Of a DNA stretch of 64,000 nucleotides, positions 13,092 to 25,077 are shown in pieces (within the stretch, counting starts at the first letter, position 1; every line of letters starts with the position of its first letter). Source of the DNA: Candidatus Latescibacterota bacterium (GTDB lineage Bacteria; Latescibacterota; UBA2968; GCA-2709665); NCBI GenBank assembly GCA_963662665.2, contig CAXXJS010000037.1, forward strand, positions 32,001 to 96,000, in the 5' to 3' direction. Under the pieces are notes generated by a model. The model was not told the DNA's origin. It saw only the letters and a list, made by a program, of their open reading frames with translations, and made no database searches. The position numbers were made by a program, and so were the translations under genes.

Positions 13092-14321
13092 ATGAAGCCC
13101 ATCGCCTACATTGCCCTATTGGGCTGTCTCCTGTGCCTCACCGCGGTCTGTTCAGACGTGAACCCGGCAAATGCACAGGAAACGCCGGCAACCGCCGGCG
13201 ACGTCACGGACCCTGCATCCCTTCGGGCGTTCGTGGAATACGCGAAAGCGCAACTGGATGACATCGCCGACGCCGCCGAACTGGCCGTCCTTTGGGGCAG
13301 CATGCGCCTCGAGGGAGACTGGAAGTCAGGGAATACCTACCTGATCGTTCTCAACAGCCGGGGGTCGGTGCTGTTCCACGCCGATCAGCCCGACGCCGAG
13401 GGAAATACCCTCCGGGGCATTGTCGACGCCAGGAGAGACAGCATTGGAAAGAATCTCCTCACGGAAGCAGCTGCCGGGGGCGGTTTTGTCGGGTACTATT
13501 GGGACGATCCCAACGTTGAGGGCGACGATGGCGGCCACCCCAAGGTGGCCTATGCCACGCAGTTTTTCTCGGAGCTAACCGACGAAAACTATATTCTGGT
13601 CGGCGGGTTTTACCAGGACCTGTCGAATCTGCCCGCCGGTGATCCCGTTTCCGTACCCCGCCCCGACGTCACGGCCGGCGAGGTGGTGGACCGCGAGACC
13701 CTGAAGGCCTTTGTCGAAAGCGCCCTCAAGGCCTTTTCCGTTGCGCTTGAGCGAATCGGACTGGAGAAGCTTACGACCATTCAGGAGGTCTTCAGAGTCG
13801 AAGGCGGGCACTGGAAGCACGGCTCGATCTATGCCTTCGTTTTTACAACCGGCGGGTACCTGGTCTTTCACGGGGCGGAACCCGAGCGCGAGGGGAGAGT
13901 CATCAACGTGGATGTTGAAGACGCCAACGGCGTCAAGATCGTACAGGAAATCATGAAAGCTGCGCGGGAAGGCGGTGGCTACGTCGAGTACGTGTGGGAC
14001 GATCCGACGGTTGATGAGGACGGAGACGGCGAGTTGCTGGGCGATACGGTGGGCTCATTCAAGGTGAGTTACGCGCTGCTCCACACCCATCTCGGCGAAG
14101 AATACATTATTGGCGCCGGCATCTACCGGCGCGGGCCCGACTTCGACGAGGACGGTGCGGTGGGTTTCGGCGACTTTCTTCTGTTTGCCAGGCATTTCGG
14201 GTTGAACAGGAACGACGCGGATTTCGACGGTCTGTACGATCTCAATAGCGATGGCGAAATCGGGTTTCGGGATTTCGTGCTCTTTGCGGCGGACTTCGGC
14301 AAACGGGTACGGTCGAATTGA
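13092..14321 (+). CDS. Secreted protein with two single-Cache-like domains and a C-terminal dockerin-like (paired Ca-loop) module
   Basis: Signal peptide; duplicated unit LKAFVE..GxWKxGxxY..VxFH..DAxG..AAxxGGG(F/Y)VxYxWDDP..KVxYA..YIxxxG; C-terminal DFDEDGAVGFGDFLLFA..DLNSDGEIGFRDFVLFA. Confidence 0.75.
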   Translation: MKPIAYIALLGCLLCLTAVCSDVNPANAQETPATAGDVTDPASLRAFVEYAKAQLDDIADAAELAVLWGSMRLEGDWKSGNTYLIVLNSRGSVLFHADQPDAEGNTLRGIVDARRDSIGKNLLTEAAAGGGFVGYYWDDPNVEGDDGGHPKVAYATQFFSELTDENYILVGGFYQDLSNLPAGDPVSVPRPDVTAGEVVDRETLKAFVESALKAFSVALERIGLEKLTTIQEVFRVEGGHWKHGSIYAFVFTTGGYLVFHGAEPEREGRVINVDVEDANGVKIVQEIMKAAREGGGYVEYVWDDPTVDEDGDGELLGDTVGSFKVSYALLHTHLGEEYIIGAGIYRRGPDFDEDGAVGFGDFLLFARHFGLNRNDADFDGLYDLNSDGEIGFRDFVLFAADFGKRVRSN

Positions 14322-14495
14322 CGGCCTGTTTGACCGCGGGTTGTTGCGGCGGTGCTGAGCAAGAAAAAAAGGGAGGCGGCGAAGGACAGATTCACGGATT
14401 GGAAAGTGGCGACGCGAAGGGCGAATCGTATCGCCGTTTCGTCATTTGATCCCGGAACTGCCGTAAAATAAAACGGTCGGGTATTTAACACGCAT

Positions 14496-14532
14496 AAAAA
14501 GAAGGGCCGTGTGACTCACACGGCCCTTCTTT
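14496..14532. terminator. bidirectional intrinsic terminator between convergent genes
   Basis: AAAAAGAAGGGCCGTGTG-ACT-CACACGGCCCTTCTTT perfect stem. Confidence 0.85.
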
Positions 14533-14574
14533 CGTTGGTGATAGTGGAGCAGAGAATCCCCGAAACCATGGCTC

Positions 14575-16932
14575 TCAGTTTACCGTAAAGGTGTTCTCGC
14601 TGGCGTACGTTCCCCTTTCACCGTCAATCGTTATCTCGGCGACCATCCGGTATTCCCCGGCGCTGGTTGTCGAGTAGGGGCACAGCCCCACGCGCAGCGT
14701 TCGTTCAATATCGGCCCATGAATCGCCCTCTCTACGTTGCCACTTCGACGTGTGTGTCGTGTACGCCGAACCCTCAATGGATATGCCAATCAGCGTGATG
14801 CATTGCTCGGTTGTGGATAGTGCCAGGAATTGAACCCCTCCGTCCGACACCAGAAGCCCGGCCAGCGGTTGAATTTCCACGGGCATGGTTGTGGCTTCCT
14901 CGCAGTTTTCTCCGGTGGTTCGGTCGATGCCCTCCAGCCACAACTGAAAGCCCTCGTCAAGAGGCGCGCACAGCCCGGTGGCGTGAAACTGGATATCTTC
15001 CATGCCGTTCAGATTGGTCAGGCTGAACGGCAGCGCGCCCTTCAGGTCCGCATTATCGTTGACCCACAACTGGGCGAGGTCGGACAGGTTTCCAATGGAT
15101 TCAGGCAGTTCGCCGCTCAACGTATTCTCGGACAGGTCCAGCCATACCAGGGTGGACAATCTGCCCAATTCCGAGGGAATCGGTCCGGTCAGCTTGTTGG
15201 CGGCGATCCAGGCCACTTCCAGGGAGGCCATATCGGCCAGCGAACCCGGTATCTCGCCGGTCAGTTCATTCTTGTCTAGTTCCAGCCACCTGAGTTCGTC
15301 GAGGGCGCCGAACTCGGACGGAATCTCGCCCGTCAGCTTATTTTCGTTAAGCCTGAGCACTTCAAGGACGGCAATATCGGCCAATGTGGGTGGAATGGCT
15401 CCGGACAGGTCGTTTTCGTTAAGGTAGAGCCGTTGGAGGTGGGGCAGGTTGCCAAGCGCCCCGGGAATCTCACCGGACAGTCTATTCGAGCTTAGCCAAA
15501 TCATATTCACGTTGGTCATGTCGCCCAGTTCGGCCGGTATGGCGCCGGACAGTTGGTTTTCCGAGATATCCAGAAATAACAGGTTCGTCAGCTTGCCAAA
15601 TTCCGCGGGTATCTCGCCACTCAACGCATTCTTCCAAATCCACAGGATCTTGAGATTGGACAGATTTCCCAGTTCGGCAGGCATCTCACCGCTCAACTCG
15701 TTTTCGTCGAAATTCAGCCAGCGCAGTTCAGAAAGGTCTCCAAGTTGCGCGGGTATGGTTCCGCTCAACTGGTTGGCGTTGAGCGCCAGCCATCTGAGAC
15801 TGGACAGGTTTCCCAGTTCGGCGGGTATCTCACCGCTCAACGCGTTCCGGTGCAGATAGAGCGCTTCATTACGGGTAAGACTCCCCAATTCATGTGGAAT
15901 GGGACCGGAAATGCCATTCCGTTGAAGGTAGAGCCGTCTGAGATGCGAAAGGCTGCCCAGTTCAGAGGGGATTTCACCGGTCAGATTGTTCTCGCTCAGG
16001 CTTACTACCGAAACGCGACCGTCGAATGTGATGACGCCATGCCACGTGGAAACGTGTTTGTCGGTCAGCCAGTTGGTCCGTTCATTCCAGCTGTCTCCAC
16101 CCGTCGACCTGTATAGCGCCACCAGGGCGTCACGTTCCGCTGGGTCCACAAGCGGGGCGGGCGGCGGGAGTTCCTTTCCGAACTGAGCGGCGAATTCGAG
16201 AAAATCGCCGAGACCGACCGTCCCGTCGCCATCCAGGTCGAACCGTCCGTCGAAGGAATCCTCCTCCCGCTGAGCGCCGAAATTGCTCGCGAGCAGCAGA
16301 AAGTCGGAAAATAAGACAGTACCGTCGCCGTCGAAGTCGGCACGGTGTACGTCAAGGCCGGGAGACGGGGCCGCCGTACTGTCCTGCAGGGAAAGATCGA
16401 CGTCGAACGACGCGGTTTTCTCCCGGTATCGCCCGAGTTGAATGTCACCCCGGGCCAAACGGATCGTTGTGCTCGAAAAAGACTCGGACGTTCGAAAACG
16501 TATGGTGCCCACAAGGCCGTCTCTGGGCGTGGTGCGGCTCGCAAACGGCCAGACCGAAACCTCCACGGACTTCGGATGCGTTTCTTCCTTCGTCGTCGCC
16601 ACGGCATGGGTCATGATTCCGCCAACGTCGAACCTGTCGAAGAGGACCTGCCGAGCGTCGTATTCGAAGCGCATGGACACGACGGTCGCCCCCTGGATGT
16701 CATCGCCGAAGACCTGTATGGAAACGACGTCCCCGGCGGAGACTTCAAGTGACGTCGCGCCCTGATCGCCCTCCGCGCCATCCAGATCGGGAGAAAGCGA
16801 AAACAGACTCTGGGAAGAAACCGGCTGCGGGCCAATCCACAGGGCAATGGAAATGGTGACAGAGATCAGCAGCGCCGCCCCGCGGAAGTATCGGGCGGAC
16901 CAAAGCGATGGAGGAGTTCTCGATTCAGGCAT
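14575..16932 (-). CDS. Secreted cohesin-like + dockerin-like + plant-type LRR protein
   Basis: Signal peptide; beta-rich N-domain (VSIQVFG..FEYDARQV..LVGTIRFRT); ADFDGDGTVLFSDFLLL..DLDGDGTVGLGDFLEF; cap ERDALVALY..W..TNW..WHGV; about 14 24-aa repeats LxLxxNxLSGEIPxELGxL. Confidence 0.85.
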   Translation of the reverse strand: MPESRTPPSLWSARYFRGAALLISVTISIALWIGPQPVSSQSLFSLSPDLDGAEGDQGATSLEVSAGDVVSIQVFGDDIQGATVVSMRFEYDARQVLFDRFDVGGIMTHAVATTKEETHPKSVEVSVWPFASRTTPRDGLVGTIRFRTSESFSSTTIRLARGDIQLGRYREKTASFDVDLSLQDSTAAPSPGLDVHRADFDGDGTVLFSDFLLLASNFGAQREEDSFDGRFDLDGDGTVGLGDFLEFAAQFGKELPPPAPLVDPAERDALVALYRSTGGDSWNERTNWLTDKHVSTWHGVITFDGRVSVVSLSENNLTGEIPSELGSLSHLRRLYLQRNGISGPIPHELGSLTRNEALYLHRNALSGEIPAELGNLSSLRWLALNANQLSGTIPAQLGDLSELRWLNFDENELSGEMPAELGNLSNLKILWIWKNALSGEIPAEFGKLTNLLFLDISENQLSGAIPAELGDMTNVNMIWLSSNRLSGEIPGALGNLPHLQRLYLNENDLSGAIPPTLADIAVLEVLRLNENKLTGEIPSEFGALDELRWLELDKNELTGEIPGSLADMASLEVAWIAANKLTGPIPSELGRLSTLVWLDLSENTLSGELPESIGNLSDLAQLWVNDNADLKGALPFSLTNLNGMEDIQFHATGLCAPLDEGFQLWLEGIDRTTGENCEEATTMPVEIQPLAGLLVSDGGVQFLALSTTEQCITLIGISIEGSAYTTHTSKWQRREGDSWADIERTLRVGLCPYSTTSAGEYRMVAEITIDGERGTYASENTFTVN

Positions 16933-17189
16933 CGGGTTCTTTCTCCCTATTTGGTGCAGGAGTTCTCATTTTCCAGATATTATAAAACATAATTAAATAC
17001 TCTGATTTCAACAAGGGTATCGCGGGTCGTATTTATGTATCCCAGGTTTGCGCATGTGCGGCGCACAATTGACGGCCGTCAGCCAACTTTAGGACAATAG
17101 AAGGCCGCTCCATCGTCGCATTCATCGCGGAGACCCACACGTCCCTTCGACTTCCAGCGGTCTCAGTATTCACTGCTTAGTCGAATTAT

Positions 17190-17230
17190 ACAACATAAAC
17201 GTTGACAACAGAATTGTTGTATGATATATT
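17190..17230 (+). promoter_or_regulatory. sigma70 promoter overlapped by tandem palindromes (putative operator)
   Basis: TTGACA 17202-17207, 17 bp, TATATT 17225-17230; ACAACA-GAAT-TGTTGT at 17205-17220 and ACAACA-TAAA-CGTTGA at 17190-17205. Confidence 0.65.
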
Positions 17231-17262
17231 TGCCTCCTATTCATCAAAAAAGGAGCGTACTA

Positions 17263-18504
17263 ATGAACTCATCCACGGGCCGCTGGGTTTGCGGCGATGA
17301 CTTTTTCAACCGTGATCGTGAATTGAAGATTCTGGAAACACTGGTCCGAGACGGAAACCACGTGCTGTTGACCGGACAGCGGAGGATGGGAAAGACCAGT
17401 ATCGTCAGGGAACTCGGTCGCCTACTCGAAGCCGACGGTTGGATCTTTCTCTTTGCCGATGTTGAAGGAGCGGCATCTCCAGAGGATGCGATTACTGAGA
17501 TTGCGAGGGCCGTGCTCCCCGTTCGTCCGGTAGCTGCCCGTTTTGCCGTTGGAATGAAGCGTTTCTTGACTGAAAGCTTAGAGGAAATCAACGCGCTCGA
17601 ATTTGCCGTGAAAATCCGTGCAGGGCTGAACGCCGGCAATTGGAAGCATCATGGTGAGCAGATGTTTAGTGTATGCGCCGAGCAGGACAGGCCGGTGCTC
17701 CTGGTCGTCGACGAACTACCCATATTTCTCAAACGAATGCTCCAAGCCGACGGCAACGCACGTCGTGTGGACGAATTCCTGAGTTGGATGCGCGGAGAAT
17801 TACAGATTCTTGAAGAAGGCGCTCCAGTTCTCATTGTGTCCGGCAGTATCGGTCTCGAACCACTCGTGCGGAGGCTCGGAATACCCGACCGCATCAACCA
17901 TTTCTATCCGTATCGGCTCGCGCCATGGGACCGTGCAACAAGCGTGAAGTGCTTCAACCGCCTTGCGGAAAGTTACAAGTTACCCCTGGAGGACGGAGTG
18001 GCCGATGCAGTGTATACTGCACTCGGGATCGGCATCCCCCACCACGTTCAATCATTCTTCACGCGTCTGCGGGAATTCGCCACCATGCACGAACGTAAAA
18101 GGGTGACGGTGAAAGACGTGGACCAGGTCTATCATAACTCACTCCTGGGACCTTCCGGCCAAAGCGACCTCGTGCACTACGAGACGCGCCTCATGGATGT
18201 GCTGGAAGATGAGAGCTACTCTATTGCGATGGAGATTCTCGCCGAAGCGGCGGTTGAGGGAGTGTTCACACCAGACGCGTATAGCTGTCTTGGCCAAATG
18301 TATTCCAGGCTCGTAAATGATGCACCTGCACGCATCGCCGATGTTCTTGATGTCCTGGAACACGACGGGTATCTCAAAGGCAGTGCCGACGGCCACCGTT
18401 TTGAGTCGCGTGTGCTCAAGGACTGGTGGGCATCCCGATTCAGAGATCACCATATCCCGATCCTGCGCCGCGAAGACAAAAGAGATTCAAAGGAGGCAGT
18501 GTAA
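17263..18504 (+). CDS. P-loop ATPase (archaeal-ATPase/STAND-like), 413 aa
   Basis: FFNRDREL, Walker A GQRRMGKTS, Walker B LLVVDE, SGSIG, GIPHHVQ; RBS AGGAG at 17251. Confidence 0.85.
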   Translation: MNSSTGRWVCGDDFFNRDRELKILETLVRDGNHVLLTGQRRMGKTSIVRELGRLLEADGWIFLFADVEGAASPEDAITEIARAVLPVRPVAARFAVGMKRFLTESLEEINALEFAVKIRAGLNAGNWKHHGEQMFSVCAEQDRPVLLVVDELPIFLKRMLQADGNARRVDEFLSWMRGELQILEEGAPVLIVSGSIGLEPLVRRLGIPDRINHFYPYRLAPWDRATSVKCFNRLAESYKLPLEDGVADAVYTALGIGIPHHVQSFFTRLREFATMHERKRVTVKDVDQVYHNSLLGPSGQSDLVHYETRLMDVLEDESYSIAMEILAEAAVEGVFTPDAYSCLGQMYSRLVNDAPARIADVLDVLEHDGYLKGSADGHRFESRVLKDWWASRFRDHHIPILRREDKRDSKEAV

Positions 18505-21275
18505 TGACAGCTTCCAAACCATCGCCGCTGAGCCCCAATCGCAGGATAAGGAAGTTCAACCCCGGCACGCATCAATCTGACGAAGAGATTGTCGAGCAGT
18601 TTGTCGTTCGCAAACGCGAACTGGATGCCGTACTCGAGGTTCTCCGTGAAAACGTGAATTCACCCTCCTGCCAGCACATAATGATCGTTGGCCCTCGCGG
18701 TCGGGGAAAAACCATTCTCCTGGTTCGGGTCGCCGCGGAGTTGCGGACCGACAAGCAACTCTCAGAAAGCCTGTTTCCAGTCCGGTTCATGGAAGAGAGC
18801 CAGGAGATCTTCAATCTGGCCGACTTCTGGCTCGAGGCGCTGTTTCATCTCGCAAGGGAGACCGAGGAGCAGAATCCTGTCCTTTCGCGGAATCTGCGTG
18901 AAACGCATGGCGACCTTTCCTCGCGGTGGCGTGAACAGTCGCTCGAAGCGCTCGCCCGAGCCGCGGTTCTGGAAGCGGCGGACCGGCTGGACCGAAAACT
19001 CGTGCTTATGGTTGAGAACCTGCAATCGCTATGCGAAAACGTGGATGACAACTTCGGCTGGAAGCTTAGAGAGGCACTTCAGTCCGAACCTCAGGTCATG
19101 CTGCTTGCGTCCGCAACAAGTCGATTCGAGGGTCTTGACGACGTGGAGCAGCCCTTTTTCGAACTGTTTCGAAACATCAACTTGCAACCGCTGGACACAG
19201 ATGAGTGTCGCCGCCTGTGGCTGGTCGTGAGCGGAGATAAAGTGAGTTCGCGGGAGATCAGGCCGATCCAGATCCTGACCGGCGGAAACCCGCGCCTTCT
19301 GGTCATCGTCGCGGAGTTTGCGAGACACCGCTCCCTGCGCAGGCTGATGGAAGAACTGGTAACGCTGATCGACGAGCACACGGAGTATTTTCGCGGACAT
19401 CTGGAGGTCTTGGCGAAGACTGAGCGACGGGTGTACGTCTCGGTGATAGACCTCTGGAAGCCGTCGAGTCCCGGCGAAATCGCGGCGCGCGCTCGTACAG
19501 ACGTGCGCATCGTATCGACGATGCTGGGGAGATTGGTCGAGCGGGGGGCTGTCACCGTGGAAGGCCGGGGACGAAAGAGACTATATGCCCCCGCGGAACC
19601 TCTCTACAGCATCTATTACAAGCTGCGGCGCGAGCGCGATGCGGCGGCCGTCGTGGAGAATCTGATACACTTTATGGTGGCGTTCTACGACATTGGCGAG
19701 TTGGACGGAATTCGTGAACAGTTATATTCCGAGGCAATCGGTTCAGATATCATCCGCGCCGGATTAGACCGCGCGCTAGCGAAAATTCCACCTGCCAACG
19801 ACAGTTACACGAAAAAAAAGTGGGATTTCGTCAAAGACGCTGCGGTTAAGGTTGAAGTCTATCATCAAGGAGTGGCTGAAAGACGGCTTGACAAAGATAT
19901 CGAGGACGCGTTTCAGGTACATGCGTGGCAGAAAGTCATCGGAATCATCGATGAGGTGTTCACGTCCAGGAACATGGAATCTCGGAAATTGTCAGAAGCA
20001 TTCATTGCCCGAATTATGCATGCGAAGGCCTTTGCGTACGAGCAACTTCGAGATTTTCACGCGGTGATCACAGCGTGCGACGAGCTGGTCAAGCGCTTTG
20101 GCGAAAGCAGTAAGCCGGAAACTCAGACGAGGGTCGCTGCTGCGTTGTTGGATAAGGGCAGAGCGAAACAACAGATGAATGATCTGGAGGGAGCCACGTC
20201 AATCTACGATGAGGTCGTTGAGCGCGGTAGGGAAGGCGACATATCAAGTCTTCTGTGGTTGGCCGTCGCTGCATTACATTACACGGGAGAAGCCAGAAGG
20301 GAACAGGGTGATCTGAGGGGAGCCATTGTGGCGTTCGACGAAGTGGTCGAACTCTATAGCGAAAACAAACCACCAGATCTTCAGTTCTGGGTTGCAGCGT
20401 CGTTGGTTCGCAAAGCAGAAGCATTCAAGGAACAGGGCGATTTTGAGGAGGCCCTTTCGTTATGCGAGGAAGCAGTCAGGCGATTTGGCGAAAGCGTCGC
20501 GCCGGATGTTCAAAGCTGGATTGCCGGGGCACTGATCGATAAGGGAAGATTGAGAAAGGATCAGGGCCATCTGGAGAAAGCCCTTGTAAACTTCCAGGAT
20601 GTGGTCGAGCGTTACGGCGACGACGATGAGCCTGAACTCCGGAGGTATGTCGCTGGGGCGTTGATCGACATTGGAAGAACGAAAGAGGAACTGGGTGATC
20701 TTGTAGGAGCTATGGCATCATGGGATGAGATGGTCTCGCGCTATGGCAATAGCGACGAGACCATTGTTCAAAGGCTTGTCACCGGTGCGTTGCTGGAAAA
20801 GGGCCGATGTCAGTCCGAAATGGGACATGCAGATGAAGCGCTACTGTTGTGTAAGGACCTCGAAAAAAGGGTTCGTGCTCTGGCCGGAAATGGAAATTGC
20901 CAATTCGCGTGGCAGATTTTGTGTATACGAACTCTGGCGCTGGCGGTCCGAGATGAGAATGTAGCTGCTATGAATGTGTTTTGCTCGGTGTATGCCTCAT
21001 TGCCTTCTGACAGCGAAGTTGGAATGAACTGGATGATAAGGCTCGTGCCCAACCTGCTCGCAGCCGGGGCCTCAGAACAGGAGCTCGTTGCAGTTCTTCT
21101 GACCGATCCCTCGAAATCCAGTACGCTGGCGCCTCTTGTCGTCGCGCTTCGCGAACGGCAGGGCGAGAGGGTTTATGCACCAGCGGAGGTTCGCGAGGTC
21201 GCTGCGGATGTGCGCAAGCTAATCGTCGACCGTGTGAAGAGTCGGGCGAATGCGACAGCAGATTCTCCGGCTTGA
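18504..21275 (+). CDS. STAND-like ATPase + winged-helix + TPR-like repeat protein, 923 aa
   Basis: FVVRKREL, Walker A GPRGRGKT, variant Walker B LMVEN, TGGNPR, wHTH-like SPGEIAARARTDVRIVSTMLGRLVERG, about 7 repeats with a 43-aa period; TAATG overlap with the upstream gene. Confidence 0.85.
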   Translation: MTASKPSPLSPNRRIRKFNPGTHQSDEEIVEQFVVRKRELDAVLEVLRENVNSPSCQHIMIVGPRGRGKTILLVRVAAELRTDKQLSESLFPVRFMEESQEIFNLADFWLEALFHLARETEEQNPVLSRNLRETHGDLSSRWREQSLEALARAAVLEAADRLDRKLVLMVENLQSLCENVDDNFGWKLREALQSEPQVMLLASATSRFEGLDDVEQPFFELFRNINLQPLDTDECRRLWLVVSGDKVSSREIRPIQILTGGNPRLLVIVAEFARHRSLRRLMEELVTLIDEHTEYFRGHLEVLAKTERRVYVSVIDLWKPSSPGEIAARARTDVRIVSTMLGRLVERGAVTVEGRGRKRLYAPAEPLYSIYYKLRRERDAAAVVENLIHFMVAFYDIGELDGIREQLYSEAIGSDIIRAGLDRALAKIPPANDSYTKKKWDFVKDAAVKVEVYHQGVAERRLDKDIEDAFQVHAWQKVIGIIDEVFTSRNMESRKLSEAFIARIMHAKAFAYEQLRDFHAVITACDELVKRFGESSKPETQTRVAAALLDKGRAKQQMNDLEGATSIYDEVVERGREGDISSLLWLAVAALHYTGEARREQGDLRGAIVAFDEVVELYSENKPPDLQFWVAASLVRKAEAFKEQGDFEEALSLCEEAVRRFGESVAPDVQSWIAGALIDKGRLRKDQGHLEKALVNFQDVVERYGDDDEPELRRYVAGALIDIGRTKEELGDLVGAMASWDEMVSRYGNSDETIVQRLVTGALLEKGRCQSEMGHADEALLLCKDLEKRVRALAGNGNCQFAWQILCIRTLALAVRDENVAAMNVFCSVYASLPSDSEVGMNWMIRLVPNLLAAGASEQELVAVLLTDPSKSSTLAPLVVALRERQGERVYAPAEVREVAADVRKLIVDRVKSRANATADSPA

Positions 21276-21642
21276 GCAACTTCAGCACGGGCAACTGATT
21301 TCGGTTTGTCTACGCCCAATGGGGTTGACAGTTGTGGATTTATGCAATAGATTTCGGATATGAATATCCGTTGTGACGCGAAGCGAGGCATTCGAAGTGG
21401 ATTATTCACGAAAGCCAGTGCTTTTTGTTGAATAATTGGCTGTTTTTCGACAATGAACCGGCAGTTCTTGCAGCTGTGGGATCGAGTTGGTCGTCGCTGT
21501 GTCGCGCGGTAAATGGTCGAAGGTTCATTGCCGTCGTTCATATCCGGGAGCACTATTCCCGCATTTGGTCTTTATCCTGTTTATCCTGTCCATCCATGTA
21601 AGGTCTGTATTCTGAATTTAACGGTGTTTAAGGAGTGTCGGT

Positions 21643-22725
21643 ATGCGGAAGATAATCCTCCCGGCCGTCTGCGGGGCGCTGGTTTCAATCGGACCGGCCC
21701 TTGCCGATGAACTGACCACGGACAACGGGAAGCGCGCTATTGCCAATCCGAAGGCGCGGCAGCTAAGTGTCCTGGATGCGGGCAAGAGTTCACTACAGAA
21801 GCCCACGCCGATGTCGGGGGAAGGGACGTTGAAGGGATACGGGCTTTCGCTGGAACACGTTCCCTCCAGGTACGAAATGGTAAACGGTCGCGCGTTGAGC
21901 GGGAACCCGCTGGAAGCCGGGGACGGCAAACGGCCGCTGCCCTTGCCGACATCGGATTTCGGGGACGGAAGATCCAACGGAAGACTGACGAGGGGATTGA
22001 ACATAACCGGGGGCCGGAACGCGTTTGCCACGCTCAGGCTGGAAAAGGTTGAAGACTCGAGCGCAGACAACGGGCTCCTGAAACTCCACGTCTCACTGGC
22101 CCGCGTGAAGGACCTGAAAGGGTACGGGTTTTCACTGCACTACGACCCGACGAAGTACGAGCTGATGGATGCCACGGAATTGGAAGAGAACCTGCTCAAA
22201 TCCGGCTTGGGGCGGCAGACGCTGTTCGTATCGGCAAACCACACACCGGGCAGGCTGGATGTGGGCGCGGTGAAGGTGGATGGTCAGGCGGTCAGCGGCG
22301 ACGGAAGGCTTGTAGAACTCACCTTTAAGACAGTCGGTACGCCAGCTTCCGGCGATTTCAGAATTTCGGAGGGTGTGCTGGTCGGCCTCGATGGCGCCAT
22401 CGACCGGCTGGCGAATGTTGATTTCGCCCGCCTGACGCCACAACCCGGCAAATATAGCCTGGACCAGAATATGCCGAATCCGTTCAACCCCTCCACCGTT
22501 ATCGGATACACCCTTCCCGAGGCCGGCCCGGTACGGCTGGCCATCTACAACCTTCTGGGCCAGGAGGTCCGCGTTCTGGTCGACCGTCATATGGAGGCAG
22601 GTTCCTTCTCGGCGACCTGGAATGGGAAGGACGAAATGGAGCGGCCGGTGTCCAGCGGAATCTATCTCTATCGGATACAGGCCGCCGATTTTACGGCGTC
22701 CAAACGGATGATGTTCCTGAAATGA
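21643..22725 (+). CDS. Secreted protein with cohesin-like domain and C-terminal FlgD-Ig/T9SS-CTD-like domain
   Basis: Signal peptide; DLKGYGFSLHYDPTKYEL..VSGDGRLVELTFK; C-terminal LDQNMPNPFNPSTVIGY..AIYNLLGQEVR..WNGKDE..SSGIYLYRI..KRMMFLK. Confidence 0.75.
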   Translation: MRKIILPAVCGALVSIGPALADELTTDNGKRAIANPKARQLSVLDAGKSSLQKPTPMSGEGTLKGYGLSLEHVPSRYEMVNGRALSGNPLEAGDGKRPLPLPTSDFGDGRSNGRLTRGLNITGGRNAFATLRLEKVEDSSADNGLLKLHVSLARVKDLKGYGFSLHYDPTKYELMDATELEENLLKSGLGRQTLFVSANHTPGRLDVGAVKVDGQAVSGDGRLVELTFKTVGTPASGDFRISEGVLVGLDGAIDRLANVDFARLTPQPGKYSLDQNMPNPFNPSTVIGYTLPEAGPVRLAIYNLLGQEVRVLVDRHMEAGSFSATWNGKDEMERPVSSGIYLYRIQAADFTASKRMMFLK

Positions 22726-22751
22726 ACCAGGCTGGACGTCGCAGCGGGATA

Positions 22752-22783
22752 GAAGGGCCGCCCCGAACGTGAGGCGGCCCTTT
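22752..22783 (+). terminator. putative intrinsic terminator
   Basis: AAGGGCCGCC/GGCGGCCCTT stem followed by a short T-run. Confidence 0.55.
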
Positions 22784-22819
22784 CCATTCCAGTCGATCAC
22801 CCAATGGAAGGAAGGAAAC

Positions 22820-23725
22820 ATGCCCCGATTTTGCGCAATCGCCCTGGCGGCCCTTACTGCGCTCGGATTCGTCCAGAAGGTTGTCGCGGAGACGCCGGAC
22901 TTCTACGCGCACTGGGCGGACGGCAAGGCGGAGATCTCCAGCTATCGCGTGGCGCAGCCTCGTTACGGAGAGTCACGCGAGGGATACGGCGTCCTCATTT
23001 TCGTCACCGAAGACGTGAATCGAAATACCTACATTAAAGTCGAGTCGCCAACGCCACCGGACGAGAAGGTCTACGTTCTCAAACTGAACAACGTGTTGAA
23101 GTTCACCACCGGCATCTACGACTATTCGGTAATGACATCCGTCTTCAGCGCCGTTGAGGGTCTGGACGGTTCAAACCCGTTTGAACTGATGAAAGTGAAT
23201 CTGAGTTCGCAGGAGTGGTGCGGACATATTTTCGATGAAATTCGCGTGAATGGAGGCAAACTGCGCGGCACCCTGAACAGTTACTTCGAACGCGAAGGCC
23301 TGCGTACATACAGTCTGGACAAGCCCGAAGGCTTTCAGAGCGAAGACCATCTTCTCATACAAATCCGGGAGCTCAAAGGACCCATGATGCAGACGGGCGA
23401 ATCGCGGCCGGTCCGGCTTCTGCGCAGCCTCTGGTCATTCCGGACGCGCCACCGTCCCCACGCCCTGGTGGACGCACGGTTGAGCAAAGGACTGCCTGAG
23501 ACGATCACCGTGTCGAACGAGAGCCACAACGCCATTCCATGGCGCTGGGAAACAGACGGGTGGAACACAACCGTGTGGGTGGAAACGGCGTACCCTCGCC
23601 GCATTCTGAAATGGGAGGACACGTTGGGCGGCAGTGCGGAACTGATGGTGACCGTACGCGAACCCTATTGGCAGCAGAAAGCATCGCGGGACGAAATCTA
23701 CCGGCAGCGGCTGGGGATACCCTGA
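22820..23725 (+). CDS. Conserved hypothetical secreted protein
   Basis: Signal peptide; FYAHWADGKAEISSY..RYGE.R.G..VLIFVTED, KLN..KFTTGIYDYS, SSQEWCG; RBS AAGGA. Confidence 0.7.
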   Translation: MPRFCAIALAALTALGFVQKVVAETPDFYAHWADGKAEISSYRVAQPRYGESREGYGVLIFVTEDVNRNTYIKVESPTPPDEKVYVLKLNNVLKFTTGIYDYSVMTSVFSAVEGLDGSNPFELMKVNLSSQEWCGHIFDEIRVNGGKLRGTLNSYFEREGLRTYSLDKPEGFQSEDHLLIQIRELKGPMMQTGESRPVRLLRSLWSFRTRHRPHALVDARLSKGLPETITVSNESHNAIPWRWETDGWNTTVWVETAYPRRILKWEDTLGGSAELMVTVREPYWQQKASRDEIYRQRLGIP

Positions 23726-23747
23726 AATATAAATTGGAGGACCGAGA

Positions 23748-24497
23748 GTGACGACAATCGAAAAGGCGCGAGAAGCCATAGAACAGAGCGACATCGGGAG
23801 GCTGGAGGGTTTAATCACATCCTTTCCCGATCTGCCCAATCTCAGATCGGGAGACAACGATCGCACGCTTCTGCATACCATCGCAGATTACCCCGGGCAC
23901 AAACCGAAGGGCGTGGAAATGGCCAGACTGGTCATCGACGCGGGAGGCGACGTTAACGGGCGTTTTCAACACGGGGAGGTTGAATCGGTAAAGGAGACGC
24001 CATTGCACTGGGCAGCCAGCAACGATGACGTCGATCTGGCGGACCTCCTGCTCGACGCTGACGCGGACATAGATATCGATTGCGGCGTCATCGCGAATGG
24101 GACGCCGATATGGAATGCCGTTATTTTTCGATGTGTGAACGCCGCACGGCTGTTGATCGACCGTGGCGCGGCATCGAACCTCATGACGGCCGCCGGCGCA
24201 GGGCGACGGGACCTCGTGGATCGGTTCTTTGACGACGACGGAAACGTGACGGAAAACGCCGGGGCCCTGCCATGCTGGGATGAACCGAGGCCGCCGCAGA
24301 CGGCCCTGGACAGCGCTTTCGGCCTGGCGTGTCGAAACGGCCATACGACGATCGCCAAAATTCTTTACGAACGGGGCGCCGATCCGGATTGGGTCAACCC
24401 GGCCGGCGAATCCGCGTTTCTTCAGGCACGGAGAGGCAATCACAGGATCGTCATGGACTGGATGAAGGCGCGCGGCCTCGCACCGGATGACGCTTGA
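23748..24497 (+). CDS. Ankyrin repeat protein
   Basis: RTLLH, ETPLHWAASNDD..LLLDADADID, ACRNGH..LYERGADP; GTG start after GGAGG. Confidence 0.88.
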   Translation: MTTIEKAREAIEQSDIGRLEGLITSFPDLPNLRSGDNDRTLLHTIADYPGHKPKGVEMARLVIDAGGDVNGRFQHGEVESVKETPLHWAASNDDVDLADLLLDADADIDIDCGVIANGTPIWNAVIFRCVNAARLLIDRGAASNLMTAAGAGRRDLVDRFFDDDGNVTENAGALPCWDEPRPPQTALDSAFGLACRNGHTTIAKILYERGADPDWVNPAGESAFLQARRGNHRIVMDWMKARGLAPDDA

Positions 24498-25077
24498 CGT
24501 GAATCCGGACGCATCTTCTCTCGTAATTCTGGGTAGTGAATCGCAGGGCGGGTCGTATATATTGAGGATTCGCCTGGCGGAGCCTACCCCGCTCTCGTTC
24601 GGCGGATTCAAGCGCGGAAAGATCATATCGCTGCCTGCGGGAGAGTACGTCTACGTCGGGTCGGCGACGTCGAAGAAAGGCGCCGCGTCGCTGGCCAACC
24701 GCCTGGTCCGCCATGCCACCCGAAGCGGCAGGAAGGAACCTCACGGAATCCGGTGCGAATTACTCCGGCGATTCAACCCCATCGGTCTGGGAAACGAAAA
24801 CCTCGAGCCAGCAACCCAAAAGAACCTGCACTGGAATATCGACTATCTGCTGGACCTGCCGGCTGCCGAGCTGACCGGCGCCTGCATCCTTCGAACTCCG
24901 GAGTATCTCGAAGAACGTCTGGGTAAATTCCTGGAGCGCGATCCCCAAACCATCGTTGTTGAAAAAGGCCTGGGCGCAAACGATGCGCCCGGCAACACCC
25001 ACGTTCTACGCCTCGCGGCCGGAGAGGCGTGGTGGACGTCCCTTCCTGAACGGCTCAGAGGCCATTTTAGCATTTAA
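24487..25077 (+). CDS. DUF123 / GIY-YIG (Uri superfamily) nuclease-like protein
   Basis: GGSYILRI, GEYVYVGSA, RLVRH, LHWNIDYLL, GLGAND. Confidence 0.75.
   Translation: MTLDVNPDASSLVILGSESQGGSYILRIRLAEPTPLSFGGFKRGKIISLPAGEYVYVGSATSKKGAASLANRLVRHATRSGRKEPHGIRCELLRRFNPIGLGNENLEPATQKNLHWNIDYLLDLPAAELTGACILRTPEYLEERLGKFLERDPQTIVVEKGLGANDAPGNTHVLRLAAGEAWWTSLPERLRGHFSI

Follow-up and report, generated by a model that had tools for sequence, protein, structure and literature searches.

An effector-less pair of STAND-like and ORC/Cdc6-like ATPases behind a predicted palindromic operator, a candidate NLR-like conflict module in a Latescibacterota genome

Known bacterial immune sensors of the STAND class (signal transduction ATPases that have numerous domains), such as Avs and bNACHT, act via a fused enzyme. 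A nucleotide switch beneath a tetratricopeptide repeat (TPR) sensor is also found in PH0952 (Protein Data Bank, PDB, entry 6mfv) and in the regulator MalT, whose output is a separate LuxR-type helix-turn-helix (HTH). Similar in logic are the paired sensor/helper nucleotide-binding leucine-rich repeat receptors (NLRs) of plants and the NAIP-NLRC4 system of animals. Two ATPase_2 (PF01637) proteins of solved structure, SSO1545 (2fna) and PAB2304 (2qen), have to our knowledge been given no function, nor has a pairing with a TPR-STAND gene been described for them. Here we describe a two-gene cassette that can be compared with all of these. It occupies positions 17263-21275 of a 64,000-nucleotide stretch of DNA (hereafter the window, to which all unprefixed positions refer) from a Candidatus Latescibacterota bacterium, contig CAXXJS010000037.1. 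The evidence gives good support to a co-evolving, autoregulated pair composed of a TPR-bearing, DNA-binding STAND-like switch and a canonical ORC-like ATPase, with no enzymatic effector.

Both genes, and the features within them, lie on the + strand. Gene 1 (17263-18504; ATG at 17263, stop codon at 18502-18504) encodes 413 amino acids (aa), and gene 2 (18504-21275; ATG at 18504) encodes 923 aa; the open reading frames (ORFs) themselves start at 17221 and 18426, respectively. The stop codon of the first gene and the start codon of the second overlap as TAATG, with AAGGAGG located 5' of the ATG at 18504, and the ribosome-binding site AAGGAG can be read at 17250-17255 before gene 1. A sigma-70-type promoter is predicted at 17202-17230 on the same strand, with TTGACA and TATATT separated by 17 nt, a TG before the -10 box, and 11 of 12 consensus positions. 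This is the best of four promoter-like sites in 16800-21700 and, because shuffled sequences give 2.9 +/- 1.5 such sites, only its quality is notable, the number of sites being no higher than expected by chance. The GC content of the gene pair is 0.551, compared to 0.580 for the window and 0.588 for the genome, and drops to 0.439 in the spacer upstream of gene 1. Since the pair falls at the 9.4th percentile of 2329 4-kb genome windows, it is only mildly AT-rich. A search of the window for DNA-level tandem repeats returned none (0 rows).

The protein encoded by gene 1 is, judging from its structural model, an ORC/Cdc6-like AAA+ ATPase of the ATPase_2 type with canonical Walker motifs. The AlphaFold2 (AF2) model is of high quality (pLDDT 93.3, pTM 0.90), and its nearest folds in a Foldseek search are 2fna (E 7.9e-11, TM 0.60) and 2qen (E 2.0e-10, TM 0.59). 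These two matches span the whole chain, namely the AAA+ base, the lid, and the winged helix, at 16-17% identity. They are followed by Orc1/Cdc6 structures (including 2qby and 2v1u, with a heterodimer on origin DNA), RuvB, and TnsC. Walker A is GQRRMGKTS (17374-17400) and Walker B is LLVVDE (17698-17715). Residues R40, G43, K44, S46, W127, D150, and P259 are invariant in 79 homologues and E151 is at least 90% conserved; because the Walker residues are kept to this extent, the nucleotide site can be considered canonical. Behind the ATPase base, the model and residue charges indicate a lid, a helical linker, and then an acidic winged helix (about 18268-18447) with a net charge of -2.

Family profiles recover these relationships weakly. 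Pfam assigns AAA_16 (5e-9) to gene 1, and ATPase_2 (PF01637) matches at 3.3e-6 with 27.5 bits, which is under the gathering cut-off of 33.2, although the same family appears in the precomputed Pfam lists of many close homologues. The cassette proteins therefore differ from established PF01637 members in that both score below this cut-off (30.6 bits for gene 2), as well as in their low identity to the solved structures. A sequence search of PDB gave 2qen alone for gene 1 (E 0.037) and nothing meaningful for gene 2. The NCBIfam orc1/cdc6 model TIGR02928 aligns with gene 1 on the P-loop only (21.2 bits versus a cut-off of 181.3), and so the family model is not matched. A recent duplication as the origin of the two genes was considered and ruled out, given that BLASTP aligns them at only 17 of 53 positions around the P-loop (E 0.024); they have a common fold class and are not close paralogues.

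Gene 2 likewise can be described from its model as a STAND-like NTPase followed by a winged helix, a TPR array, and a conserved C-terminal domain. The nucleotide-binding domain (NBD, residues 31-225) and lid (226-300) span 18594-19403, as delimited by the model and by invariant columns, and contain Walker A GPRGRGKT (18690-18713), a deviant Walker B LVLMVEN (18999-19019), and GGNPR (19281-19295), which is part of TGGNPR. The winged helix-turn-helix (residues 301-380, 19404-19643) has a net charge of +7, a pI of 10.3, and many invariant Arg, Ser, and Thr residues. It is followed in the AF2 model (pLDDT 83.8) by a helical arm (residues 381-495), seven 43-aa TPR-like repeats that could serve as a ligand sensor (residues 498-792, 19989-20879; also seen with Pfam), and an all-helical C-terminal domain (residues 793-923, 20880-21272; from invariant columns and the model). 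The helix pairs of the repeats begin at residues 498, 538, 581, 624, 667, 710, and 753, with a period of 43. Pfam profiles agree with this layout, with matches to AAA_16 (5.9e-10), to ATPase_2 at the score given above, weakly to nSTAND5 and NACHT, and to many TPR families, of which TPR_6 reaches 4.8e-17. The winged helix matches TrmB, DUF7342, and Penicillinase_R weakly, and in homologues it matches MarR_2 and HTH_27.

Conservation along gene 2 is highly uneven. Among 54 sequences, the NBD (70% mean pairwise identity), the lid (77%), and the winged helix (76%) are well conserved, and the arm (41%), the TPRs (37%), and the C-terminal domain (48%) less so. Residues R65, G66, G68, K69, E171, N172, G260, G261, P263, and R264 are invariant in this set, as are G855, P877, L882, G887, E895, and A900 of the C-terminal domain, and both VENLQ and the G-x-P-R motif are kept in a Clostridium homologue at 21% identity. 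The best 120 matches to residues 1-460 are 67-94% identical there and vary from 544 to 1267 aa in total length. Natural forms that lack the TPRs retain the C-terminal domain (the short form at locus L006 matches residues 755-909, and that at L024 matches 680-907), for which the protein atlas offers no informative look-alike (top score 0.84). On these sequences, gene 2 follows an NLR-like layout, with a conserved nucleotide-binding core and a variable TPR sensor. In AAA+ proteins, an Asn replacing the second acidic Walker B residue suggests ATP binding without efficient hydrolysis.

Avs, also termed AVAST (e.g. Avs3, PDB 8dgc), is among the closest described systems, and like gene 2 it carries a central STAND-type NTPase and, behind it, a long, variable, TPR-like sensor. 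In the Foldseek search, the top match to gene 2 is the STAND-TPR protein 6mfv (1.5e-8) and Avs3 is third (4.4e-7). When the features that define Avs are looked for in gene 2, the NTPase core is present with its deviant Walker B and the long C-terminal repeat sensor is present, whereas a fused effector and a match to an Avs profile are absent. Avs profiles in PADLOC 2.0.0 gave nothing at E up to 0.1. The cassette also departs from Avs in having an obligate second ATPase gene and a predicted autoregulatory operator, in the ATPase_2/ORC-like character of its core, where Walker B reads VEN, and in its basic winged helix. Both proteins sit in the ORC/Cdc6-like ATPase_2 borderland of STAND and not in the Avs clades. 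We found no mention of such a pair in a 2026 survey of 589 STAND clades, whose supplementary clade tables may list the clade, and in the part of the literature that our search reached there is no description of the gene 1-gene 2 pair.

An effector was looked for with several methods. Neither protein gave a nuclease, TIR, SIR2, protease, or other effector domain with Pfam, PADLOC, NCBIfam, or the fold search, the same is true of 9 distant gene 2 homologues and 6 plasmid homologues, and just about 30 residues precede the NTPase of gene 2. The system profiles of PADLOC 2.0.0 and NCBIfam 20.0 gave no match beyond the P-loop level for either protein, with DS41_1, for example, scoring 12.5 bits versus a cut-off of 370. 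Fused forms were considered as a clue to the effector and rejected. Such forms are rare. Of three proteins of greater length, P0395 (1092 aa, aligned to gene 2) is a gene 1-gene 2 read-through, P0396 looks like a read-through as well (Pfam list, 28% coverage), and P0397 has only a weak TrmB match. A further protein, P0342, is a gene-1-like core fused to TPRs, and all four are without an enzyme domain.

Evidence that the two genes form one system comes from their co-inheritance. Homologues of gene 1 are numerous, with 1963 matches among 8000 scored candidates; identity is 66-99% and length 372-424 aa in the best 120. In a library clustered at 50% identity, 2003 representatives match at E up to 0.001, of which 241 do so at E up to 1e-30. 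A genome scan with gene 1 yielded 23 loci in metagenome-assembled genomes (MAGs) labelled as at least six phyla, a taxon range that was taken from record titles, plasmid records, and automatic protein-atlas labels. Gene 2 is directly downstream in 22 of these, and the remaining locus (L012) runs off its contig end. The same arrangement holds for 10 of 10 loci in the phylum of the window whose gene 1 is only 25-45% identical, and thus gene 1 without gene 2 was not seen among the 33 loci found with gene 1, the truncated L012 included. Pairs are also present on plasmids of Clostridium estertheticum (gene 1 of 408 aa, gene 2 of 943 aa), C. tagluense (392 and 530 aa), Moraxella osloensis (397 and 699 aa), and Segatella copri (384 and 298 aa). 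When 284 neighbouring ORFs were clustered, the gene 1 and gene 2 families alone recurred, the next family being present in 4 loci. The TPRs of distant pairs are of different types (TPR_12/TPR_10, TPR_17, and the 43-aa type). Gene 2 can be intact beside a gene 1 fragment (L024) or a frameshifted gene 1 (L022). The two genes are an obligate, co-inherited pair without a conserved third gene.

Additional copies occur at some loci. At L018 (10852-13830) there is a second, inverted cassette in tail-to-tail orientation, with a gene 2 that is 34% identical and a degraded gene 1, and at L023 and L024 a second gene 2 paralogue lies in tandem.

Most of what the original prediction had read from the window's letters has held up. 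It had described a two-gene unit with its own promoter and a TAATG overlap, an intact Walker A and B in gene 1, a variant Walker B beside GPRGRGKT and TGGNPR in gene 2, a winged HTH, and about seven regular 43-aa TPR-like repeats, and each of these is borne out by the signals, invariant residues, and models given above. Its further statements that no nuclease, TIR, SIR2, or protease domain could be seen and that the unit could not be matched to a named system agree with the profile and fold searches, and the obligate pairing that it had proposed to look for in gene neighbourhoods is seen in close, distant, and plasmid-borne loci. Two statements need to be narrowed. The pair is more AT-rich than its surroundings, only weakly so, and the idea of an NLR-like sensor system fits the conserved core and variable TPRs while the affinities of the proteins lie outside the Avs clades. 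Three features had gone unremarked: the ORC/Cdc6-like ATPase_2 affinity, the basic and conserved winged helix, and the palindromic operator over the promoter.

Two predicted operator sites adjoin each other at 17190-17220: site 1 is CAAC-N6-GTTG (17191-17204), and site 2 is ACAACA-N4-TGTTGT (17205-17220), located between the -35 and -10 boxes. Together they overlap the -35 box, and their context (17187-17227) is TATACAACATAAACGTTGACAACAGAATTGTTGTATGATAT. Of 33 related loci, 28 carry the looser pattern CAAC-N5-7-GTTG in the 120 bp upstream of gene 1, at 60 sites in total; the other 441,648 bp of these loci contain 33 sites, which amounts to 0.01 per 120 bp. Among the five loci outside the strict pattern, L029, L031, L032, and L034 carry variant repeats as judged by eye, and L003 has none. 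Six plasmid loci have promoter-proximal palindromes of lineage-specific sequence, recognized by eye only. At L034 (5902-5990), five tandem copies of a 17-base operator variant (GGAAACAAATTCGTTGG type) are upstream of a distant cassette. Where gene 2 stands alone, in Agrobacterium and Sphingobium, it is accompanied by CCAACAATTTTGTTGG-like sites, which are palindromes of the CAACA..TGTTG type; those of Agrobacterium sit in a 160-bp divergent spacer common to a cyclase operon.

Because a conserved palindromic operator lies over the promoter, either gene 1 or gene 2 is likely to be a sequence-specific DNA binder that regulates its own operon, and DNA binding, at least for autoregulation, would be part of the system. 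The better candidate for this role is gene 2, since it has a basic, conserved winged helix and since the operator persists where gene 1 is absent; on sequence grounds, this winged helix is probably the operator-binding domain. Across the 4.86-Mb genome, a search for complete, strong sites recovered the double palindrome a single time, at the promoter of the cassette itself, and perfect ACAACA-N4-TGTTGT twice. The second perfect copy (C59:6516) was considered as a regulon target and set aside because it lies inside an ORF and is taken as chance. Elsewhere in the same genome, C8:986-1040 holds the intergenic palindrome GGCCAACAACACGTTTTGTTGGCC and, after it, a second GGCCAACAAC copy. The CAACA/TGTTG half-site of this palindrome is common with the operator; no homologue of the cassette is present there. 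Gene 2 resembles PH0952 and MalT in placing a nucleotide switch under a TPR sensor, with DNA binding as at least one predicted output. It differs from MalT in having no LuxR-type HTH according to Pfam, only a winged helix inside the core, as well as in having no evident regulon and an obligatory second ATPase.

The distribution of the cassette is patchy, decaying, and transfer-prone. A match at E up to 1e-20 is present in 43 of 168 genomes of the window's phylum. Among these are 9 of the 14 other genomes belonging to the genus, and two of the 9 have only 57-58-residue remnants. The 53 matches in the phylum include 8 with an in-frame stop and 4 fragments, and some genomes carry up to five divergent copies. 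Phylum labels show little clustering on the gene 1 tree, where they change 9 times; at least 5 changes are required, shuffled labels average 10.4, and 18 of 200 shuffles gave a number this low. One fully supported clade of five rows has three phylum labels; this is a quick maximum-likelihood tree of 23 sequences, and MAG labels may be wrong. The gene tree therefore seems to scramble phyla. Carriage on plasmids is rare, with 2 hits for gene 1 (E 1e-10) and 8 for gene 2 (E 1e-8) among 72,556 records, and PHROGs gave one weak match (E 0.0016).

Metagenome runs that contain the window offer a complementary view of the same family. Conserved core segments of both genes at 17271-17427, 18056-18212, 18684-18840, and 19155-19782 collect foreign contigs at 85-95% identity, with a summed depth of up to about 50 times that of the flanks, and the TPR region is covered by the organism's own contigs only. 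Many co-resident genomes seem to carry related cassettes. A near-identical strain contig (X6 record 13, 2306 bases, 9 differences) has no insertion or deletion in the TPR region; it is the one such piece in four runs, for which contigs only were used. Among 20 runs there is no RNA data set that contains the window, a result that has no bearing on expression.

Genes near the cassette provide further hints regarding its function. Three ORFs on each side of the 23 loci (117 ORFs) were scanned with PADLOC at E up to 1e-10, and credible defence genes are present at 7 loci. These are Type IIG restriction-modification (RM) genes at L003 and L004; DRT UG21, a type IV REase, and PDC-S26 at L007; HEC-01B at L008; HmaA at L014; PDC-M24B and PDC-S39 at L019; and MTase-HNH at L020. 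Two more loci are ambiguous (a generic reverse transcriptase, RT, at L011 and PDC-S45 at L022). Matches to PolA, adenosine deaminase, RelA/SpoT, a sigma-54 activator, and a group II intron RT were set aside as housekeeping look-alikes. In 4 of 6 plasmid records, reading of the annotation shows defence neighbours, namely Qat in one, TIR, Pycsar, and AbiE in another, WYL, DUF262, and an IetA-like gene in a third, and cyclases and ThiF in a fourth. Because there is no background control, this context is suggestive and is not an enrichment test.

Some of these neighbours merit description. At L003 (783-6576) and L004 (757-6565), from two MAGs whose phylum labels differ, the genes directly upstream of the cassette encode a protein of about 1790 aa and a DUF7689 protein; the former carries Mrr_cat_2 and ResIII and matches the PADLOC type IIG REase-MTase at 1.7e-86. 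Cache and leucine-rich repeat (LRR) genes are found downstream of the cassette at these two loci and upstream of it in the window. At L014 (10803-13585), a group II intron-type RT comes after an HmaA-like SNF2 helicase (1.5e-235, covering only the first 500 of the 1176 positions in the profile); the arrangement looks like a defence gene interrupted by an intron.

Taken together, these observations make an autoregulated sensor/partner module with an NLR-like role in biological conflict, probably against phages or other mobile elements, our preferred but tentative interpretation, to which we give a little less than an even chance. A conflict or immune role is favoured because of the variable sensor, the inter-phylum transfer, the patchiness, the decay, the genomes with multiple copies, and the partial defence context. 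Like Avs, the cassette is patchy, transfer-prone, and partly associated with defence genes. The likeness to sensor/helper NLRs consists of two linked STAND-type genes that are inherited as a unit, with a variable sensor that has a deviant nucleotide site and a conserved, canonical partner. It is a likeness in logic only, since no sequence relationship is evident beyond the superfamily, and gene 1 carries no signalling or death domain. A complex prediction for the natural TPR-less pair of L006 (411 and 585 aa) gave an ipSAE of 0.00 in two runs, without controls, and speaks neither for nor against a complex.

A mechanism can be outlined on this basis. The variable TPR array of gene 2 would bind a ligand, probably a foreign protein. 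Its core carries an invariant Glu-Asn where Walker B normally has two acidic residues, and for that reason probably binds ATP with only inefficient hydrolysis. In the resting state, the basic winged helix would hold expression low by binding the palindromic operators over its own promoter. Gene 1, a paralogous fold that has no sensor, would be the obligate partner that activated gene 2 recruits or releases, and it may execute the response by ATP-driven oligomerisation, possibly on DNA. Because gene 1 was never seen without gene 2 and the reverse does occur, gene 1 is favoured as the costly executor. In this outline, the identity of the operator-binding protein, the ligand, the contact between the two proteins, and the output are what we infer. 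A more ambitious version holds that this is the first bacterial NLR-like sensor/helper pair with an ORC/Cdc6-like AAA+ executor in place of an enzyme domain. In that case, a foreign protein would free the TPR sensor from its own operator to nucleate gene 1 polymerisation on DNA or in a ring, the replication of the invader or the cell would be arrested, and the module would pass among co-resident bacteria of many phyla. We regard this full version as unlikely.

Several observations weigh against a role in conflict. No effector domain is present in any member examined, which leaves the output to guesswork, and PADLOC gives matches at the P-loop level only (mad8 at E about 3.5e-4, PDC-S01/S27 at E 0.0076 or worse). 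The loss of hydrolysis expected from Glu171-Asn172 is presumed by analogy with AAA+ proteins in general. The neighbourhood in the window is no defence island, being composed of PolA, Cache/dockerin, LRR, cohesin, ankyrin (ANK), DUF123, and metabolic genes, and 14 of the 23 loci have no defence neighbour in genomes whose background rate was not compared. Gene 2 can persist without gene 1, given that solo forms (39% identity) reside on one Agrobacterium tumefaciens plasmid and one Sphingobium baderi plasmid, where tblastn finds no gene 1, even across the Sphingobium plasmid origin. Homologues are absent from 50,697 phage records, and a single pattern, [AG][QP]RRxGKTS[LI], recovers 0 relatives from IMG/VR; these absences are neutral with respect to defence and speak against carriage by phages. 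Lastly, a conserved operator and a DNA-binding winged helix would equally fit a plain transcription regulator.

This last point leads to the most serious competing explanation, which we consider a minority possibility: the cassette might be a non-immune STAND transcription regulator like MalT, AfsR, or GutR, in which gene 2 senses a metabolite or host cue and binds DNA, gene 1 is a co-regulator or chaperone-like partner, and other targets are reached via weaker sites. An operator that overlaps the promoter is what such a protein would have, as is a basic, highly conserved winged helix with MarR/TrmB-type matches. The best fold match is a STAND-TPR protein (6mfv), the window sets the cassette among metabolic and eukaryote-like surface-protein genes, and in Agrobacterium the palindromes lie in the spacer shared with a cyclase operon. 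However, the double operator occurs once in the genome, the other perfect single site is inside an ORF, and no conserved neighbour gene is available as a local target. For a housekeeping regulator it would be unusual to be so patchy, to occur as fragments or with in-frame stops, and to have relationships that mix phyla; nor is a distinct output domain for DNA binding, like a LuxR HTH, present.

Rather improbable, in our estimation, is an addiction or selfish cassette akin to toxin-antitoxin (TA) systems, in which gene 2 would neutralise a toxic gene 1 ATPase and repress the operon, and persistence would result from post-segregational killing and not from defence. Overlapping, translationally coupled genes behind an autoregulated promoter are in keeping with such a cassette, and so are its movement between phyla, its presence on plasmids, and the asymmetry by which gene 2 outlasts a broken or lost gene 1 and gene 1 is never seen without gene 2. 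Yet simple addiction has no use for a variable TPR array of 300-700 aa on the 'antitoxin', the nucleotide sites are conserved in both of these large ATPases, and plasmid carriage is rare. The distinction from a conflict module is also blurred in that many modern TA modules are defence systems.

Archaeal Orc1/Cdc6 proteins bind repeats at origins adjoining their own genes. A replication or maintenance module left by a degraded mobile element, with two ORC/Cdc6-like initiators acting on iteron-like repeats in an AT-rich spacer, would draw on this precedent, on the match of gene 1 to Orc1/Cdc6 structures (2qby and 2v1u), on the up to five tandem palindromes at L034 and the spacer GC of 0.44, and on the plasmid copies, but it is very improbable because no integrase, relaxase, partition, or other mobile-element gene is conserved beside the cassette, in both L020 and L021 it is flanked by adenosine deaminase and RelA/SpoT, which are housekeeping genes, the repeats lie over the -35 and -10 boxes like a repressor site, TPR sensors are no feature of initiators, the NCBIfam orc1/cdc6 model scores about 21 bits versus a cut-off of 181, and the viral collections yielded no matches.

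The surroundings of the cassette within the window have a character of their own. The secreted-protein genes that the original prediction had placed on either side are indeed there, with an LRR protein upstream on the - strand and a cohesin/FlgD_ig protein downstream. More broadly, eukaryote-like and surface-protein genes fill 13092-16932 and 21643-24497, encoding Cache/dockerin, a 785-aa LRR protein, cohesin/FlgD_ig, and an ankyrin-repeat protein. A gene for a DUF123 protein (1.5e-16) at 24487-25077 overlaps the end of the ankyrin gene by 11 bases. Sponge symbionts typically carry repeat proteins like those around the cassette. The record titles of related loci include a 'Poriferihabitaceae' MAG.

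Compared with known bacterial STAND immune sensors and their fused enzymes, the large cassette family keeps the sensor logic without a recognisable weapon. Whichever of these explanations applies, the family is well defined and testable, with carriers on plasmids of cultured Clostridium, Moraxella, and Segatella strains. A regulatory role would make the cassette a STAND transcription switch of a new, autoregulated type, and an immune role would reveal both a novel form of output and a counterpart, in prokaryotes, to the sensor/helper pairs of NLRs.

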